This document shows positions 6,710 to 34,357 of a stretch of 34,357 nt of DNA, one piece after another. A model generated the notes under the pieces. That model was not told where the DNA came from and searched no databases. It saw only the letters and a program-made list of their open reading frames with translations. Where the stretch lies: positions 1-34,357 of the forward strand of contig BTVJ01000079.1 in the NCBI GenBank assembly GCA_045863395.1, read 5' to 3'. Position 1 is the stretch's first letter. Each line of letters opens with the position of its first letter. A program made the translations under genes and the position numbers. Source of the stretch: Myxococcales bacterium (lineage in GTDB: Bacteria > Myxococcota_A > UBA9042 > JABWCM01 > BTVJ01).

Positions 6710-6769
6710 TTGACCGGTAGCCTTGTCGGGGGCCAAGGTAGCCATGTGGAGCACACAGGTGGCCACCTG
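6710..6769 (+). promoter_or_regulatory. probable TA promoter/operator: TTGACC plus three GGTRGCC sites 21 bp apart
   Basis: TTGACC at 6710. GGTAGCC at 6716 and 6737, GGTGGCC at 6758. The last lies inside the perfect palindrome CAGGTGGCCACCTG (6756-6769) next to the RBS. No clear -10. Confidence 0.6.
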
Positions 6770-6779
6770 GAGGTCAGCC

Positions 6780-7058
6780 GTGTCGCAGAGCCGTATTGGA
6801 ATCAAAGAGCTTCGGGACACGCTCAGCGCGACGATCGCCAGGGTCAAGCGCGGTGAGGCGGTGACGGTGACGGAGCGCAACGAGCCCGTCGCCGTGATAC
6901 TTCCTGTCAGAGAGCAGACCTCAGACGACGAGGCGCTCTGGCAGGCCGTCCGAGACGGGATGGTCTCCTGGTCTGGAGGGCACCCCGCCGCGCGCCGGCG
7001 CCGCCCCCTTGGCGCCGGAGAGCCGGTCTCGGCGGCCGTTATGGAGGATCGCGGGTGA
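6780..7058 (+). CDS. Phd/YefM family antitoxin
   Basis: IGIKELRDTLSATIARVKRGEAVTVTERNEPVAVILP is a typical Phd N-terminus. GTG start with GGAGG at 6769-6773. Ends VSAAVMEDRG. Confidence 0.9.
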   Translation: MSQSRIGIKELRDTLSATIARVKRGEAVTVTERNEPVAVILPVREQTSDDEALWQAVRDGMVSWSGGHPAARRRRPLGAGEPVSAAVMEDRG

Positions 7059-7210
7059 CGCCTCGCTCCTGTTACCTCGATACGAGCGCCCTGGTGAAGC
7101 TCTACGTGGACGAAGACCAATCCGAGCATGTCGCCATGATCGTGGGGGGTGCCCCGCGCGTCGCCATCTCGCGACTCGCGTATCCAGCGGAGGGGCTCGG
7201 CATCCAGTGA
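7055..7210 (+). pseudogene. vapC: VapC/PIN toxin remnant (51 aa), probable in-frame internal deletion
   Basis: Not in the ORF track. GTG overlaps the antitoxin stop. Reads MTPRSCYLDTSALVKLYVDEDQSEHVAMIVGGAPRVAISRLAYPAEGLGIQ*, a PIN N-terminus only. Confidence 0.85.
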
Positions 7211-7464: not shown

Positions 7465-7866
7465 TCAACGTGGCTCTGAGAGCGCGGCCGCCAAGTCGGT
7501 CTGGGAGAAGTCATTCCCCTTGAACAGCAGCGGGTGGCCAGACGCCTTGGCGAGGGCGTACGAAAAGCAGTCACCGAAGTTCAACTTCGCAGGGTGGCGC
7601 CCTTTGCCGAACAGCGCGAAGGCCTCGCGGGCGAGGCGGGCGTGCTCCACGGTGACAGGTACCACTTCGATCTGCGACTCCCGCAGGAGCTCGTCGAGCT
7701 TCCGCGCTCCTGGCTCACCGTGACGCGCGAACAGGACAAGCCCCGTCTCCACGACCGAGGCCGCAGAGACGAGGCACACCGGGTCGCTCGCAATGGCACC
7801 CGCCAAGGCCCCGGCCTCCTCCTCCTGCTCGAGGATCGCCACAAGGGCGGATGTGTCGATGACCAT
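7465..7866 (-). CDS. vapC: VapC PIN toxin (VapC30/Rv0624-like)
   Basis: [12 protein letters not shown]...VETGLV...FGKGRHPAKLNFGDCFSYALAK...LLFKGNDFSQTD. ATG overlaps the antitoxin stop. Confidence 0.95.
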   Translation of the reverse strand: MVIDTSALVAILEQEEEAGALAGAIASDPVCLVSAASVVETGLVLFARHGEPGARKLDELLRESQIEVVPVTVEHARLAREAFALFGKGRHPAKLNFGDCFSYALAKASGHPLLFKGNDFSQTDLAAALSEPR

Positions 7867-8120
7867 CACGTCGGCAGGCCGCTCTCGTCGTAGCCAAGGA
7901 TCTCGTCGGGCGCTCGGTCGTCGAGCAACGGCAGGCTGGCGCACTGCCGACCGATCTCCATGAGGCGCTCGGCCAATGGCCGGTTGTCCCGCTGGGCCCG
8001 CTTCCGTGCGAGCCGCTCCCGCAGCGACAGCACGACCGCCTCGGTGAGGCTCTCGCCCGTCAACGCGGCAAGCTCTCGGGCCAGCTTGTCGGCTTCGTCG
8101 TTCTTGATGCTAAGCGCCAT
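7866..8120 (-). CDS. vapB: VapB antitoxin (VapB30/Rv0623-like)
   Basis: [29 protein letters not shown]...[12 protein letters not shown], recognisably the Rv0623 family. Confidence 0.93.
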
Positions 8121-8307: not shown

Positions 8308-9219
8308 TCACTCGCGAACGGAGTCAAGCGCCCACGTCTGCGGCCACCGCTTCTCCCACCGTGGAAGGCAGAGCAGGTCGTCGCGGGCGAGGAGCTCGGA
8401 GACGGCCCCGTAGAGGCGGCGCTCCTCGGGGGACGACCGGAAGCGCTCGGTGAGGGAGCGCCGGCTGGTGTACTGGATGCAGGGCAGCACGGAGCGGCGC
8501 AGCGTGCGGCTGGAGACGCCGCGGAGGCGCTCACGCAGGGCGGCGAGGTCGGGGCGGCCCTTCACGAAGCGGGCCTTGAAGGCATCCACGTCGCCGAAGA
8601 CGTGGGGGTCGAGCACGCTGACGAGCCCGTAGAGCTCGAGGAGCGAGCTCTGGAGCGGGGTGGCGGTCAGCAGCAGCTTGGGGGCCGCCGAGAGCGCGGA
8701 CAGCAGCGCGGCGGACTGGCGGCTGTCGCTCTTCCAGGCGTTGCGCAGGCCGTGCGCCTCGTCGAAGACCACGAGGTCCCAGGGTACGGCGGCGAGGTCC
8801 GAGGCGCGGCGCGCCGCATAGGGGTATGAGGCGACCGCCACGGCGGGCACGTCGAAGGGGTTGGCGTCGGCGCGCCCTTCCACCAGGCGGACGGGCAGGC
8901 CGAACTTGGACTCCAGCTCGGAGCACCACTGCTTGCGGATGGCGGCGGGGCAGACCACGAGGAGCCGGCGGCGGCGCTCGGCCCACCGCTGGCAGAGCAC
9001 GAGGGCCGCCTCGATGGTCTTGCCGAGGCCCACCTCGTCGGCGAGCAGCCGGCCACTCTCGGCGGTGGCGCGGAGCCCGAACAGGGCGGCCTCGATCTGG
9101 TGCGGGTTCAGGTCGACGCGGGCGTCGAGCAGGGCGGAGCCGAGGGCCTCGACCTCCCCCGAGACCTCCCGGCGCCGCAGCTCCAGCGCTCCATAGCGCG
9201 CGTGGTACGCGGTGCTCAT
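8308..9219 (-). pseudogene. SNF2-family helicase, N-terminal ATPase lobe only (303 aa, truncated)
   Basis: VDLNPHQIEAA, LLADEVGLGKTIEA (motif I), VFDEAH (II), LTATP (III). Stops shortly after ..DDLLCLP with no helicase-C motifs, and I saw no continuation in other frames. Confidence 0.8.
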
Positions 9220-9266
9220 CGCCCGGTTGCAGCATGCGGCCGCCCGCCCGGTCATCGGCGGAGTGG

Positions 9267-9619
9267 GAACCGTCGGGACGGCGCTGACGGGAGGGGCCGG
9301 GGAACGGTCCCCACCGTTCGCCGAGACGGTCAACCTGCCATATACAACGGTCCCCACCGTTCCCGGGAGACGCTCGGGGAACGGTCCCCACCGTTACAGA
9401 GGGGGACCGACGGCGTCTGGAACGGTTCGAGGAACGGTGGGGACCCTTCGCGGAGGGCGTTGGTGGTCGGGCGGAACGGCCCCCACCGTTCGCGGAGGGC
9501 GTTGGTGGTCTTGTGGAACGGTCCCAGCCGTTCGTGGAGGGCGTTCGCAGTCTCTTGGAACGGCCCCCACCGTTCTGCAGGGGGCCCCGAAGGGCCACGC
9601 GCAACCGTGGAGACTGTTC
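9267..9619. repeat. array of palindromic repeats GAACGGT-CCCC-ACCGTTC, 42-bp period in the core
   Basis: Copies start at 9302, 9345, 9379, 9432 (inverted, GGGG loop), 9474, 9516 and 9558. Degenerate copies at 9267 and 9602, half-site at 9420. Confidence 0.92.
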
Positions 9620-9773
9620 GGAGCGCTGCCGGGTTTGTCCCCGAGCGTCACTCGAGATGGGTACTTGCCATTTCGGCTGCACCAACGCATGGTCGGCGAC
9701 CAGCGACAAAGACGGAGCGGCGGGCGGGTCCCTGGGGTAGGGGACGGGCGCCGCTCGACACAGGAGGCGGTCC

Positions 9774-10592
9774 ATGACGACGGATGCGGCGGAGCTGGAC
9801 TACACGCCCGCGCGGGGCGAGGCGGCGCTGGCGGCGGTGCGGGAGGCGGCGGAGGCTCTCGCGCCCGGGGACGTGCAGCGCATCTCGGCGGGGCTCCTGA
9901 ACGCCGGCCTCCGCGCCATCGGGGTGGCGCGGCGGGTCATCGGCGACGAGGCGCTGGCGGCGCGGTTCGAGCGGCTGCCGCCTGATGAGCTCTCGCCGGA
10001 GCACCTCGCGCGCCTCTCTGACCTGGGGTGGGCGGCCGTGCATCTGCATCAGCAGGCTCTGCGGGCGGAAGCTGTGGCGACGAGCGCAAAGCTGCCCGTG
10101 AAACTGGTGGAGGAGGCAGTCTCCCGGCGGTCGCGCATGCTCGCCGCCGCCACCTACTATCTCGGCGACCTGCCGGAGACCGGGGCGGAGATCGCCTCCA
10201 TCCGGTCAGGGGGCGGGCACACGGACCTGGCCCTCGACCTGCAGCGGCTCGCGGTCCTTTACGACGCGCACCGCTCCGTGCTCGAGAGTGACAAGAAGTA
10301 TTGGCGCGCGACGGACGCCAGCGACGCGCGACGCGACGGCGACGAGATTCTCGAGACCATCGCCGGCACCCGGCTCCCGGGCATGCCCGCTGACCTCCCC
10401 GAGCGCGTCTTCACCCTGCTGCGGGTGAGCTACGGCGAGGTCCGGTCCGCGGCCCTCTGGCTCCTTCGGGGCGAGCCCGGGGCGTTGGACGGCTTCCCGT
10501 CGCTCCACGCGGTGGACTCCAAGCCCAAGGCGGCCCCGAAGCCTGCCCCGGCTCCTGCCCCCACCCCCGCGGAGCAGCCCGCCCTGGCCTGA
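9774..10592 (+). CDS. hypothetical protein, likely all-alpha, with Pro/Ala tail
   Basis: AGGAGG RBS, GC3-biased codons, amphipathic helical pattern, motif EIASIRSGGGHTDLALDLQRLA. No TM segment or catalytic motif recognised. Confidence 0.85.
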   Translation: MTTDAAELDYTPARGEAALAAVREAAEALAPGDVQRISAGLLNAGLRAIGVARRVIGDEALAARFERLPPDELSPEHLARLSDLGWAAVHLHQQALRAEAVATSAKLPVKLVEEAVSRRSRMLAAATYYLGDLPETGAEIASIRSGGGHTDLALDLQRLAVLYDAHRSVLESDKKYWRATDASDARRDGDEILETIAGTRLPGMPADLPERVFTLLRVSYGEVRSAALWLLRGEPGALDGFPSLHAVDSKPKAAPKPAPAPAPTPAEQPALA

Positions 10593-10716: not shown

Positions 10717-12360
10717 TCAGCCCGCCGGGAACAGCGACTGCATGCGCATGGCGAGGGAGATGTCCCCCGCGATCTTCGCGCGGCCCGTCGTGAAGAGGAG
10801 CATGCCGTTGAGGCGGCCGTTGACCATCTCCACATAGTCGCCGGCGCCAACGGTGAGCGTCACATTCGGGCTCGGGTGGGGTCCCTCTGCGACCGTGAGA
10901 GCCCCGTGCTGGACCACGGCGTGCCACGTACCTCCACCGTTGCCCGTGATGTCCCATTGGAATACGGCGTCGAGGCCGATGCTCGCGGACGCCACGAAGC
11001 GGGCGGGGAGCGTCTCGAAGTAGTCGGAGACGCTCGAAGCCGCCGGCCGGACCTTCCTGGGAGGCGATGGCGTCGATTCCGGCGCAGTCGTTCCTCGCGA
11101 CGGAGCCACCTGTTGCGGAGCCACCTGCGCTTCCGCGACGCTGTGGAACGCCCCAGCCGTCTCGGCACCGTCGGACGGGCGAACAACGAGGCCGCGCATC
11201 GACTGCACGGCACCGACGACCCGGTCTCTGAGCCCCAGGACCTCCGCCTGGACTCGACCCAGGCTCCATCGGCTGCCGGGCCCCCCGTGGTCAGGCGCCG
11301 TCTGTCCAGCGGCTCGCGACGACCCCTCATCATGGCCAGGCCCCTCGGCTCCGGCTCGCGCCGGCCCCTCCTCGTGACCCGGCGCCTCCGCGCCTTCGAC
11401 GGCACCGGCGGGCTCCTCGTAGAACTGCCGCGCCCACCGGCGAAAGGTGGAGAAGCCGCGCTCCCCGGCGGCCAGCACGGGACGCTCCAGGTAGGCCTTG
11501 CGCTCCCAGATCGGGAAGTCCCGCGGGATGTCGGCCACGAACGAGCGATAGAAGATCTCCGCCAGCTCCTCGGTGCGCTCCGCGTCGTCGAGGCGGCGCA
11601 TCTCCACTCCGACGCGTATGGCGATGCGCTCCCCGTCGATGGGCGTCGCGTAGAGCCGCTCCCGCGCCTCCAGCCCCACGTTCAGCACCCGCGTCGTGAT
11701 CAGGAGCACCCCCAGGCCATGGCATGCGAACGTGTTCTCGACCTGGCTGTCGATGCCGGGCATGCCGATGACCTCGCCCGGGGCCAGAAACCCGACGACG
11801 GTCGTCAGCGTCGCCCCGTCCGGCGTCGTCGGCTGCACCAGGCTCGGCTCCCTCATCCGGTGCACCGGGCCGAAGTGCGCCCAATCGACGCTGTTCTCCA
11901 GCACCTCCTGCACGTGGGTGGAGACCGTCCACTCCACCGTCCGCGTGCTGGACCAGCCCGCCTCGTCCAGCGCGGGGATCTCGAAGGAGGGATCCACGTC
12001 CGGCTCGCTCCACGCCAGGATCACTCCGTTCTGCTCCTTCACGGGCGTGGTCTGGATGCGCGCCCTCCCCGGCACCTTCGCGGCGTATGGCACCTCGACG
12101 CACCGCCCCTGTCCGTCCCACCGCCAGCCGTGAAACGGGCACTGGACCGTGTCGCCCTGCACAGTCCCGTCACCCAGGTGGGCACCGAGGTGCCCACAGT
12201 GCGGATCGAGGGCCGAGACAACGCCGGAAGCACCGCGGAGCAACAGCAGCTCCCGCCCGAAGGCGCGAACCGTTCGCAAGGACGCCGGTGGCACCTCGCT
12301 CGAGAAGGCGACGGCGTACCAGCTCCTGGGAACAGCGGACATCGGATAGCGCGAGCTCAC
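10717..12360 (-). CDS. Rieske oxygenase (KshA/Neverland-like) fused to a C-terminal SCP2 sterol-binding domain
   Basis: GTG at 12360 with AGGAGG. Rieske ligands CGHLGA..CPFHGW, iron site ENSVDWAHFGPVH, DFPIWERKAY. SCP2 segment FQWDITGNGGGTW...GRLNGMLLFTTGRAKIAGDISLAM. Confidence 0.88.
   Translation of the reverse strand: MSSRYPMSAVPRSWYAVAFSSEVPPASLRTVRAFGRELLLLRGASGVVSALDPHCGHLGAHLGDGTVQGDTVQCPFHGWRWDGQGRCVEVPYAAKVPGRARIQTTPVKEQNGVILAWSEPDVDPSFEIPALDEAGWSSTRTVEWTVSTHVQEVLENSVDWAHFGPVHRMREPSLVQPTTPDGATLTTVVGFLAPGEVIGMPGIDSQVENTFACHGLGVLLITTRVLNVGLEARERLYATPIDGERIAIRVGVEMRRLDDAERTEELAEIFYRSFVADIPRDFPIWERKAYLERPVLAAGERGFSTFRRWARQFYEEPAGAVEGAEAPGHEEGPARAGAEGPGHDEGSSRAAGQTAPDHGGPGSRWSLGRVQAEVLGLRDRVVGAVQSMRGLVVRPSDGAETAGAFHSVAEAQVAPQQVAPSRGTTAPESTPSPPRKVRPAASSVSDYFETLPARFVASASIGLDAVFQWDITGNGGGTWHAVVQHGALTVAEGPHPSPNVTLTVGAGDYVEMVNGRLNGMLLFTTGRAKIAGDISLAMRMQSLFPAG
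11269..11394 (-). repeat. three degenerate 42-bp (14-aa) repeats in the Rieske-SCP2 linker
   Basis: GAEAPGHEEGPARA / GAEGPGHDEGSSRA / AGQTAPDHGGPGSR. Confidence 0.7.
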
Positions 12361-12611
12361 GGGCACCTCCTGGTCGTCATCCCCAGGATGCGGGTCCGTG
12401 GCAGGGGGAGTCAATCGCCAAGGACTCGAACGCCAGTCCAGAATCGCGTTGCCTTTCAGGGACATACGAGTCGATTCGGCGCCGCAGGACAGAGAGAGCG
12501 GATCGCGGCGCGCACTCCGTCCGGCCCCCGCGCTGCGCGCTCCCCCGGCGCAGGCCGGCTCGGCGCTCGGCGCGTTGACGCCCACGTCCCGCCCCTCTAG
12601 GCTCAGTCGCG

Positions 12612-23726: not shown

Positions 23727-25355
23727 ATGCGCATCCTGCTCGCCCTCTCTCTGGCGCTGCTCCCCTCGGTGGTGGCTGCCCACGGCATCTACGGCCACAT
23801 GCACGTCACCGGCTGGGCCATCGAGAACCTGCCCGACGGGGAGCTCAAGGACTTCTTCTCGGACCCGGAGGTCTTCAACGCCGCCATCTTCGGGGCGGCG
23901 TTCACGGACTCGGGGTACTGGGAGAAGGACCCCGCCAAGGAGGACGCCGCCCGCGCCTACGGGGAGCACACCCACTGGGAGCCGTTCATCGAGGACTTCG
24001 TGAGCTGGGTGATGCTCAACGACCCGCCGCCCTGGGTGGACCAGGAGTCGCGGCTGCGGGTGGCCTTCATGATGGGGTGCGCCTCCCACGGCATGCAGGA
24101 CGAGATCTTCGACTCCCTGTTCCTGCACCAGGTGGAGCACAAGGACACGGGCTCCCAGGACAACGCCGACCCGGGGACCGACGGCTTCCTGGCGCTGGAC
24201 GGGCACATCCGCTTCATGCCGGACCCATACATCCCCATGGACACGCTGCTCGAGCTGTACGCGGTGCTGCCCGAGGGCATCACCGAGGGGATCATCACCC
24301 ACGCGGTGGGGCTCATGACCACCGTGTACGTCAACGACACCATCGGGCCTGCCGTGGCCGCCTCGCTTGGCGAGGCCTACGAGGCGGAGCTGCCGTGGAC
24401 GCGGCTCCACTACCTGGACCCGGAGGTGCCCGGGAGCCTGCGGGCCGAGATCTTTCCCACCATGCGCTACATGGAGGCGCTGTGGAAGCGGCTGCACGGG
24501 GCCCTGGGGCCGGAGGACGTGGTGATCTGGACCTTCCCGGATCCACCGCGGCGCCTCTACGGGGTGGACGCCACGTCGCCAGACCCGTGGGTGACGTTCA
24601 TCTACGGGGTGGGGGTGGGGAAGGGCTCCGTGCAGACCGTGTGGACCGCCGACGCGGGAGAGGCTGCGGTCCCCTACCAGCAGGTGGGGACCCGGTGGGG
24701 GGCGGACTGGACGCGGCTCCACCGGCTCCAGCCCACCGCCAGCCTGGAGCCGGGGGCCTGGTACACGGTGCTGTGGGGCGGCGGCACGCGCATCGACGGT
24801 GGCGCGGTGGGTGACGTGACCCTCCACTTCCAGGCGCCGTGCGCGGTGGAGGGCGACGCGGCGTGCCCGGACCTGGGGCCGCTGCCCGTGGCGAGCATCG
24901 ACCCGCCGGACGCCGGTGGGTGGGCGGATGCGGGGACGGACGCCGGTGGTGGGGACGCCGGCGGAGACGCCGGCGGGGACGCCGGTGGGGACGCCGGTGG
25001 GGACGCCGGTGGGGACGCCGGTGGGGACAGCGGTGGGGACAACGGTGGGGTGGACGCCGGCACGCCGGACGGTGGAGGGGACGTTGGCGCCGGTGGTGGC
25101 GGCCCTGGTGGGGACGCCGCGGGTGGCGACAGCGGTGGGGGCGGAGGCGGTGGTGCCGGAGGAGGGTCTCCCGACACGGTAGCGTCGGGTGGTGGGGAGG
25201 CCGGGAGCGGTGGCGGCGGCGCTGCGGACGCGGGGCGCGCGCCCGGGAGCGGCTCGGGCGGGGGGTGCAGCACCGCTCCGACGACCGGACTCCCGCCGTC
25301 GCTTCCACTGCTGGCGGCGGTCGTGCTCCTCGCCTGGTCGCGGCGCCGCTGCTGA
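23727..25355 (+). CDS. secreted Zn-dependent phospholipase C/GPI-PLD-like protein with Ig-like domain, Gly/Asp linker and MYXO-CTERM
   Basis: Signal peptide then HGIYGH. GAAFTDSGY, HTHWEPF, VAFMMGCASHGMQD. LQPTASLEPGAWYTV is Big_5-like. C-terminus GGGCS..LLAAVVLLAWSRRR. Confidence 0.82.
   Translation: MRILLALSLALLPSVVAAHGIYGHMHVTGWAIENLPDGELKDFFSDPEVFNAAIFGAAFTDSGYWEKDPAKEDAARAYGEHTHWEPFIEDFVSWVMLNDPPPWVDQESRLRVAFMMGCASHGMQDEIFDSLFLHQVEHKDTGSQDNADPGTDGFLALDGHIRFMPDPYIPMDTLLELYAVLPEGITEGIITHAVGLMTTVYVNDTIGPAVAASLGEAYEAELPWTRLHYLDPEVPGSLRAEIFPTMRYMEALWKRLHGALGPEDVVIWTFPDPPRRLYGVDATSPDPWVTFIYGVGVGKGSVQTVWTADAGEAAVPYQQVGTRWGADWTRLHRLQPTASLEPGAWYTVLWGGGTRIDGGAVGDVTLHFQAPCAVEGDAACPDLGPLPVASIDPPDAGGWADAGTDAGGGDAGGDAGGDAGGDAGGDAGGDAGGDSGGDNGGVDAGTPDGGGDVGAGGGGPGGDAAGGDSGGGGGGGAGGGSPDTVASGGGEAGSGGGGAADAGRAPGSGSGGGCSTAPTTGLPPSLPLLAAVVLLAWSRRRC
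24951..25046 (+). repeat. 12-bp coding tandem repeat GGGGACGCCGGY (GDAG), 8 copies
   Basis: Eight consecutive units; the last two read GDSG and GDNG. Confidence 0.92.
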
Positions 25356-27966: not shown

Positions 27967-28389
27967 CTACTTCAGCGGGTTCTCCACCCGGAGCCCCTCG
28001 ATGCGCTGCCCGTCGCCGAGATCCTCCGACAAGAGCACGGTCGCCTGCGACCTCACGGCGGCGGTGACAATCAGAGCGTCCCAGAAGGACAGGCGATGTG
28101 CCGCCTCCACCCGAGTCGCCTCCAGCACGTCCGAGGCGGTGATGGGCCAGACCGGCCAAGCGGTGTAGGCCTTGAGCACCGTCCTGGCACGAGCGCGGTC
28201 GAGCGGGGTGCGCAGCTTCCGCGTGGCGTTGACGTAGAACTCCTGGAGAACCTGGGTGCTGAGCGCACCGGTGCGCTGGCCCCAGAGGTGCCTCAAGACC
28301 TCCCGCGCGAGGCTGTGTTTGTCGCCCGCGTCGACGTCGTAGGCGTAGAGGAGGATGTTCGTGTCAATGAATGTAAGCTCAGTGGTCAT
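27967..28389 (-). CDS. vapC: PIN-domain (VapC-type) toxin
   Basis: FIDTNILLYAYD, STQVLQEFYVN, LSFWDALIV, LLSEDL, VENP. Confidence 0.93.
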   Translation of the reverse strand: MTTELTFIDTNILLYAYDVDAGDKHSLAREVLRHLWGQRTGALSTQVLQEFYVNATRKLRTPLDRARARTVLKAYTAWPVWPITASDVLEATRVEAAHRLSFWDALIVTAAVRSQATVLLSEDLGDGQRIEGLRVENPLK

Positions 28390-28618
28390 GTGCCGCGTCG
28401 CGAGACAGGTACGGGGGACCACCCAGCGGCAGACCCCGGTCCAGATCGGACAGCGCCTGCTCCATGGCGGCCCCGTAAGCGTCCTCGGCCTGAGCCAGCT
28501 TCTCGATGGAGCTGGACACCAGGGCGCTGATGGACGTCCCGCGGCGTGCCGCGAGCACTCGCGCCTTCTGGAGCACTGCCTTGTCGAGTCGGACCGTGAT
28601 GTTCTGCGTCTCTGACAT
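28379..28618 (-). CDS. ribbon-helix-helix antitoxin (DUF6364/CopG-like)
   Basis: QNITVRLDKAVLQKARVLAARRGTSISALV, ends SRDAAHDH, overlaps the PIN gene start. Confidence 0.88.
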   Translation of the reverse strand: MSETQNITVRLDKAVLQKARVLAARRGTSISALVSSSIEKLAQAEDAYGAAMEQALSDLDRGLPLGGPPYLSRDAAHDH

Positions 28619-28627
28619 GAGCGACCC

Positions 28628-28665
28628 CGTGCTGCACGTGTAGCACGCAGGGCAGGGGGACGCAA
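28628..28665 (-). promoter_or_regulatory. probable TA promoter with palindromic operator
   Basis: Minus strand reads TTGCGT-17-TACACG. Near-perfect 20-bp palindrome CGTGCTGCACGTGTAGCACG (28628-28647) covers the -10. Confidence 0.65.
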
Positions 28666-28779
28666 GCCCCAGCGTGACCACTCATTGATGCTGCGTGTCA
28701 CGAGTCACGCCGGGGCGAGGGCACGGACTTGGTCCGCTGGCCGTGTCGCTGGGTTCGCCGCGTGCGACAAGGCTGGGGC

Positions 28780-34077: not shown

Positions 34078-34357
34078 ATGACCACGCTCTCTCGCTCGCT
34101 GCTGGCACGCTGCATCCGCCTCGTCACGACGCTTGGTCTCTGCGTTGGAGTCGCAGCCATGAACGCAGGGTGCGCCGGAGACTCCGGTGACGCTGGCGCC
34201 GGCCTGGACTCTCAGGCCGGCGCCGACACTTCCGTGGCGGACACGGGAGGTGGCGTCGACACGCTCGCCGGCCTGGACACCGCGATTGACACGGGCGGCA
34301 CGGACACGGGCGGCACGGACACGGGCGGCACGGACACGGGCGGCACGGACACGGGCG
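34078..34357 (+). CDS. lipoprotein with DTGGT repeats, 3'-partial
   Basis: Not in the ORF track (no stop in window). AAGGAG RBS. MTTLSRSLLARCIRLVTTLGLCVGVAAMNAG-CAGDSGD...(DTGGT)n. Confidence 0.75.
   Translation, partial: MTTLSRSLLARCIRLVTTLGLCVGVAAMNAGCAGDSGDAGAGLDSQAGADTSVADTGGGVDTLAGLDTAIDTGGTDTGGTDTGGTDTGGTDTG
34288..34357 (+). repeat. 15-bp coding tandem repeat GACACGGGCGGCACG, at least 4.6 copies
   Basis: Perfect units from 34288 to the window end. Confidence 0.95.

Follow-up and report, generated by a model that had tools for sequence, protein, structure and literature searches.

The F-plasmid site sopC consists of 12 repeats of 43 bp, each containing a 16-bp inverted repeat that is bound by SopB, as described in the accessible part of PMC3177203. 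On that account, sopC/SopB (a type Ia ParABS pair) resembles the module analyzed here, in which dyad-bearing units of about 43 bp likewise adjoin the gene for a protein that presumably binds them. The partition-type feature of tandem dyad repeats at a period of about 43 bp is present. Unlike sopC, the present module is chromosomal and multicopy, its repeat differs per locus, and some of its arrays are built of 21-bp units without a dyad; unlike the binding of sopC by SopB, binding of the array by the protein family in question (the P0001 family) is putative. No ParB match was found in 89 family members (Pfam, NCBIfam), the structure model of P0001 is all-helical and lacks strands, and no ParA-type ATPase occurs among the 148 nearest-neighbour open reading frames (ORFs) of the family, two loci having a HerA-type ATPase instead.

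In type III toxin-antitoxin (TA) systems, e.g., ToxIN and AbiQ, the array acts as RNA and is placed between the promoter and the gene for the toxin, an RNase built on a beta-sheet core. As in the present case, these systems combine a short tandem array with a single gene and are often located in defence regions. They differ in that the array studied here lies outside the predicted promoter or after the gene and in that the protein model is all-helical; no ToxN/AbiQ-family match for the P0001 family was obtained in Pfam or PADLOC. Loci of DUF6261 (PF19775) are similar to those of the P0001 family in array period and layout; unlike at DUF6261 loci, nearly half of the P0001-family arrays lie downstream of the gene. 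The NCBIfam family NF052641 (PQLLE), which has no described function, showed weak similarity to 12 of the 89 members (best E 2.2e-7), and membership was rejected, as the displayed scores stayed below the 80-bit cut-off and P0001 itself gave no match. Arrays were present at two of ten PQLLE-type loci, one of them already counted in the main set.

Intergenic tandem repeats of similar period also occur in P. gingivalis MITEs, namely 464/PgRS with 41-nt and BrickBuilt with 23-nt repeats, according to the available text of PMC4596501. These elements are dispersed and multicopy with one repeat sequence, and that text does not link them to a gene family; hagB and hagC are not named in the main text of that source. 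The gene and array described below form a real two-part module whose parts travel together and which is apparently undescribed: no published description was found in the literature searched, beyond which lie most subscription and older papers as well as supplements.

The array and its neighbours in the window

The window, i.e., the whole 34,357-nt stretch of Myxococcales DNA that was analyzed, contains the following features around the array (coordinates, strand, description, and basis):

6744..7210, plus strand: Phd/YefM antitoxin with a short VapC-like remnant behind it, a neighbour (Pfam for the antitoxin, by eye for the remnant)
7465..8120, minus strand: intact pair of VapB (Rv0623-like) and VapC (PIN), a neighbour outside the module (Pfam)
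8308..9219, minus strand: truncated 5' part of a DrmD-like SNF2 helicase gene, 303 aa (Pfam/DrmD model, own-genome copies)
9302..9575, no strand: dyad array of seven units of 16-18 bp with core AACGG-N6-CCGTT (sequence)
9665..9693, plus strand: predicted sigma-70-type promoter of the 272-aa gene, TTGCCA-17-CATGGT (simple consensus scan)
9762..9767, plus strand: ribosome-binding site AGGAGG (sequence)
9774..10592, plus strand: 272-aa predicted all-helical protein, P0001 (AlphaFold2, family searches)

The original prediction had described a 554-bp gap between two divergent genes, largely filled by about nine palindromic repeats, and the gap was confirmed at 9220-9773, between the ATG of the SNF2 gene (9219, minus strand) and that of the 272-aa gene (9774, plus strand). 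Clear dyads lie at 9303, 9346, 9380, 9433, 9475, 9517, and 9559, with consecutive spacings of 43, 34, 53, 42, 42, and 42 bp, and the fourth has an inverted centre and one mismatch. Seven dyads were observed in the gap against a mean of 0.63 expected, and none of 100 shuffles reached seven. Two further degenerate copies are visible by eye near 9267 and 9602, so the count of about nine holds as seven clear and two degenerate units; "largely filled" was somewhat overstated, since the clear dyads cover 274 bp, i.e., about half of the gap. Inverted units are often found inside or at the end of arrays (window 9433-9448; also locus L044), and these would permit long hairpins or cruciforms.

The 272-aa gene is intact and has no Pfam match, and the strong ribosome-binding site that had been predicted is the AGGAGG listed above. 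Its predicted promoter lies between the array and the gene, and both paralogues in the same genome have a similar site. An Rfam search of the window gave no match. Metatranscriptome contigs cover the gene and array thinly, with strand and level not readable from the contigs; one 293-nt contig covers 9165-9457 at a depth of 6.6, similar to its neighbours. In metagenomes, an exact 18-mer of the repeat had 21 matches, none within an array or near a homologue; these were rejected as related loci and ascribed to chance, as all 21 were solitary.

The helicase fragment matches the DrmD model (868 positions) from position 22 to 288, in agreement with the earlier reading that it is cut after its first lobe; its likeness to the copy on contig C14 stops at residue 290, and the last 13 residues are unrelated. 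Two adjacent TA loci had also been proposed. The VapBC locus is intact, and the other consists of the Phd antitoxin itself (6744-7058) with a 51-codon remnant downstream, which is taken here to be VapC-like from a PIN motif seen by eye and which has no Pfam match. The window further contains a third TA-like pair (27967-28681, minus strand) of a DUF6364 antitoxin-like and a PIN-domain gene, and a long ORF (10717-12585, minus strand) that joins Rieske, KshA C-terminal, and SCP-2 sterol-transfer domains in a single frame. Tandem repeats occur at 1-76 (21 bp), 24948-25050 (12 bp), and 34288-34357 (15 bp); those at the contig ends (1-76 and 34288-34357) probably caused the assembly breaks, and the 21-bp repeat of 1-76 also terminates contig C122. 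As stated in the original prediction, no cas, transposase, or integrase family was detected, the Pfam scan covering 72 reading frames in a window with 173 ORFs of at least 70 aa.

Copies in the same genome

When up to two mismatches are allowed, the dyad 16-mer is found 21 times in 8.77 Mb, in three clusters of seven (contigs C79, C14, and C3), each of which adjoins a paralogue of the 272-aa gene with 86-88% identity. The repeat is thus confined to the paralogous loci; scattering over the genome, which the original prediction had named as contrary to its proposal, was not seen. The spacers between the dyads are copies of one another and are common to the three loci. On the right, all three copies stop sharply at the stop codon, and on the left they end raggedly within the SNF2 gene.

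The helicase 5' end is found at all three array loci, and a fourth piece lies on contig C102 without a matching array. All four copies are broken (303 aa, 404 aa, 36 aa plus a frameshifted piece, and 168 aa). C14 and C3 have a common block of up to about 9 kb with a type II methyltransferase and a restriction-enzyme fragment, and a type III restriction gene lies at the far end of the C14 block. In both, about 700 bp lie between the array and the promoter, holding a remnant that reads by eye as MazF-like and has no Pfam match. From these findings, the helicase is best interpreted as what is left of a decayed and duplicated defence block, and its position beside the array is likely that of a co-duplicated passenger that is incidental to the module. 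The proposal that the SNF2 gene is a module partner was rejected, the gene being broken in four of four copies and not being a conserved neighbour among the 148 ORFs scanned beside homologues.

The genome also contains many repeats with lags of 69-78 bp (more than 200 segments).

The 272-aa protein and its family

The AlphaFold2 model of P0001 is all-helical and without strands (pLDDT 94.8, pTM 0.79), with a central four-helix bundle at residues of about 98-193 and a Pro/Ala-rich tail, and P0001 has no significant match in Pfam, NCBIfam, PADLOC, or PDB sequences; the description as an unknown helical protein therefore stands. Foldseek of the model against the PDB gave a best E of 0.42. In VIA-align, the best match was 6n63 (Z 8.5 over 93 residues, rmsd 3.2), which is in the generic range for helical bundles, and only the central bundle matches solved structures, at such generic scores. 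The bundle aligns weakly with Avd of diversity-generating retroelements (DGR; 8ub7_B, Z 5.8, 96 residues, rmsd 3.9). DGR Avd is an RNA-binding protein. Neither a DNA-binding motif or fold nor a transposase, integrase, or nuclease motif or fold was recognized in P0001 by Pfam, Foldseek, or VIA-align.

The family comprises 4,930 clusters at 50% identity with E up to 0.001, or 642 at 1e-30, as counted from a 16-sequence profile. Among 401 genomes of the phylum, presumably Myxococcota judging from Atlas matches, 38 gave family matches, with at most six candidates scored per genome, and a full search of two genomes gave 10 and 19 matches. Conserved residues include a G-x-G turn and several Asp, Arg, and Tyr, and the family is acidic (median pI 5.7). 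No relative was detected in viral contigs, nor by tblastn in a phage collection or a plasmid collection (plasmids were searched with homologue P0019).

Linkage of array and gene across homologues

Tandem arrays, i.e., with a lag of 39-45, 61-65, or 82-88 bp within 1.5 kb of the homologue, flank 57 of 90 clear homologues, a count that takes in 12 loci from three genomes where the pattern first appeared. The 90 were obtained from 99 fetched loci, of which one gave no match and eight scored below 40 (two of these with arrays). Arrays were present at 50 of the 75 loci having both flanks of at least 600 bp, and at 11 of 16 more distant held-out homologues, one of them (L169) doubtful; kin are not independent in the homologue, held-out, or pair counts. 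By the criterion used for held-out homologues, arrays lie beside 10 of 300 random own-genome genes. The flank scans (57/90 and 11/16 versus 10/300) thus bear out the claim that array and protein form one unit, and homologues do not generally lack arrays, with about a third (33/90 and 5/16) having none that is detectable.

In an open scan of lags from 8 to 110 bp, 59 arrays were found in 172 flanks, and the best lag was 21-22, 40-45, 63, or 82-85 bp in 51 of these. A helical turn of DNA measures 10.5 bp, and the array lags are close to whole multiples of it. Because the unit walker tolerated at most 2 bases of slip, its spacing table does not count as separate evidence for the period. Arrays have 2-12 units (median 5), and a coding repeat was excluded because exact unit lengths of 41, 43, and 44 bp occur.

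Among the 57 arrays, 31 lie upstream and 26 downstream of the gene, and the side is not clustered on a quick tree (15 changes versus 17 when shuffled). In one genome (G377), two paralogues with 76% identity (L036 and L063) have partly similar repeats, downstream of the gene in one case and upstream with reversed orientation in the other, which looks like a flip of the gene relative to the array.

No fixed partner gene occurs among the 148 nearest-neighbour ORFs, and the suggestion that the module controls one particular defence gene was not supported. Roughly two dozen of them are of TA, restriction, or other defence type (PIN, RhuM, Mrr, AbiEii-type ATPase, type I/III restriction, HerA, Schlafen, and Cas4-Cas1), and many others are housekeeping genes; any enrichment of defence types is an impression from these neighbours. 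At two loci (L078, G134:C661; L095, G092:C145), a HerA/DUF87 ATPase gene directly follows the homologue and the array lies upstream, and at L045 (G186:C1) the homologue lies immediately 5' of a Cas4-Cas1 gene.

Repeat sequence, dyads, promoters, and folding

Five of the 57 arrays (coding-like, distant, or cut) were omitted from the analyses of repeat similarity and dyads. The repeat sequence is common to seven of seven protein pairs with more than 70% identity and to none of four pairs at 50-70% (52-62% identical), and below 50% only a faint trend between repeat and protein similarity was seen (rho 0.13). The expectation that the repeat tracks protein phylogeny was therefore upheld above 70% identity and failed at 50-70%.

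Of 33 arrays with at least four units and dyad arms of at least 5, 19 have a centre of 0-2 bases. In 21 of the 33, conservation is higher in the dyad arms than elsewhere in the unit (0.86 versus 0.80), and in the other 12 it is not; since the consensus served to define the dyad, there is a bias toward this result. No dyad is present in the arrays of L049, L080, and L104, and 21-22-bp direct repeats occur among the held-out loci as well. In a few homologous arrays the spacers have diverged.

Most upstream arrays end 5' of a predicted TTGAC-type promoter-like site, and the array is therefore no constant part of the mRNA. Many downstream arrays begin no more than about 100 bp past the stop codon. 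Neither strand folds better across the arrays (29 of 57), and some arrays show no folding in the folding scan.

Proposed protein binding to phased DNA and alternative readings

The period, the dyads, the independence of side and strand, and the private repeats in multicopy families would together be explained by binding of double-stranded DNA. In this simplest and best of the readings, given about even odds, the protein binds, or coats, its own phased array in this form. One protein unit would occupy each repeat, a spacing of two or four helical turns would align the bound proteins on one face of the helix, and the protein may oligomerize along the array. Fast repeat turnover could keep the multiple paralogues of a genome specific for their own arrays. 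The complex would most likely store the protein or organize or control nearby accessory DNA, often of defence or TA type; its purpose is the weakest step of this explanation. Several observations speak against DNA binding by the protein: the family is acidic and has no recognized motif, a third of the homologues are array-less, several arrays have no dyad, and the arms are not more conserved in 12 of 33. Furthermore, repeats that are unrelated at 52-62% protein identity demand a very fast change of specificity, and other helical genes of the same genome have arrays too, so that another protein could be the reader.

The arrays might be read by another factor (a general nucleoid or regulatory protein, or another array-linked helical family) or act through DNA shape alone, with the protein having a separate job for which it needs no more than such a cis element close by. 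This is regarded as unlikely. It would suit an acidic protein without a recognized binding motif, a repeat that is free in sequence and fixed in period, and the occurrence of such arrays in several families without detectable sequence kinship. A private repeat per locus would hardly be recognizable by one general reader, however, the dyad arms tend to outdo the spacers in conservation, and most own-genome non-coding arrays of this period that are not at contig ends adjoin a helical orphan gene.

Alternatively, the array may be transcribed, its RNA repeat units binding the protein as antitoxin, scaffold, or guide in a type III TA- or TIGR-like manner. The 554-nt gap folds better than its shuffles (z -2.97), the many downstream arrays near a stop codon would be co-transcribed, and the weak alignment of the bundle to the RNA-binding Avd fits as well. 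This reading is nevertheless judged quite improbable, given that most upstream arrays lie 5' of the promoter-like site, that folding shows no strand preference, that many dyads are loopless and some arrays do not fold, that the helical-turn period has no obvious reason in RNA, and that the window spacers, as mutual copies across three loci, provide no unique guides. The phased-DNA reading fits better than the RNA-hairpin reading, and dyad centres of 0-2 bases are as in protein-bound DNA dyads.

It is likewise doubtful, and given a small probability, that array and gene form a small mobile or recombinogenic cassette in which the array marks an end or recombination site, the cassette dragging pieces of neighbouring DNA along. 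Such a cassette would account for the sharp right end and ragged left ends of the three own-genome copies and for the patchy and multicopy distribution of the family, and a P. gingivalis MITE holds 41-nt tandem repeats (accessible text of PMC4596501). In the protein, though, nothing of transposase, integrase, or nuclease type was recognized at the level of motif or fold, the C14/C3 block of up to about 9 kb is not a fixed short unit, and the phage and plasmid collections gave no tblastn match.

Assignment to known classes was rejected for I) a CRISPR- or TIGR-Tas-like array, as the window spacers are copied between paralogous loci; II) REP-RAYT/MITE, as the 21 copies lie in three clusters and the protein has no transposase family match; and III) DISARM, as the truncated DrmD-like gene scores 225.7 bits where the cut-off is 950 and the Pfam-scanned ORFs of the window include no drmABC. 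For the family, Pfam gave no Cas or Nop-domain match and no such fold is among the matches listed by Foldseek or VIA-align, a result that leaves some probability for a protein of this type.

Arrays beside other helical families and significance

DUF6261-type genes were found in 22 of 301 genomes of the same phylum, and arrays of like period are present at 12 of 30 DUF6261-type loci, with one more at 32 bp (three turns); the count leaves out L144, a microsatellite, and L146, which is of low complexity. PF19775 did not exceed the Pfam cut-off in any of the 89 P0001-family members or anywhere in the P0001 genome, and hhalign between the two families gave a non-significant probability of 0.4%, no better than reversed controls. 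The order and length of the helices are similar in the models of both, their bundles align to the same structures (2gsc, 2rld, and 8ub7_B; Z 5.8-8.4), and the Atlas lead from P0001 to DUF6261 scored 0.80. From these models, common ancestry of the P0001 family and DUF6261 appears plausible.

Array-linked genes without a Pfam match, from at least three further families, were found at the following own-genome positions (basis: Pfam):

C41:2115-3346
C57:42006-42999
C9:165589-166145
C51:46530-47333
C126:9208-10264
C73:1761-2900

Each of them adjoins a non-coding array of 21-22 or 42-43 bp. The gene on C73 is a fourth, distant homologue (E 5e-9), that on C126 is DUF6261-related (Atlas 0.96), and C41/C57 and C9/C51 represent two more Pfam-less families. 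Away from contig ends, most own-genome non-coding arrays of this period adjoin a helical orphan gene.

For the P0001 family, with its approximately 4,900 clusters and without a Pfam model, a solved relative, or a function, a first handle is gained, namely a predictable cognate DNA element that is readable beside the gene in array-bearing members. Binding can therefore be tested directly, and nature supplies dozens of orthogonal pairs of protein and array for this. Should the proteins indeed read repeats that change so freely, they would represent a new type of DNA reader whose specificity shifts fast. Beyond DUF6261, this study adds a second and much larger family, the independence of the array from side, variants that are not palindromic, and an estimate of how fast the repeats turn over. 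The like rule in DUF6261 and other helical families suggests that a class of phased nucleoprotein modules has been overlooked across phyla. More speculatively, and with a low probability, there may be a large multi-family class of proteins with private DNA tracks in which Avd-like bundles polymerize on phased arrays and the array is a DNA antitoxin or sentinel. Array loss or displacement during phage attack would then release an effector, and the repeat code would be rewritten faster than the protein; if true, this would be a defence or addiction system with a DNA array as antidote.

Other repeat-bearing sites were noted as well. At four contig ends of the same genome, such arrays occur with no helical gene in view. 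C117 and C53 carry one different repeat, one copy of which lies beside a gene that resembles, by eye, a Y1 (REP-associated) transposase. At C31:75688-76551, a DUF6261-type alignment match (E 4e-14) is followed downstream by a degenerate palindromic tract below the array threshold. Elsewhere (L141, G052:C1), a DUF6261-type gene adjoins a CRISPR-type array.
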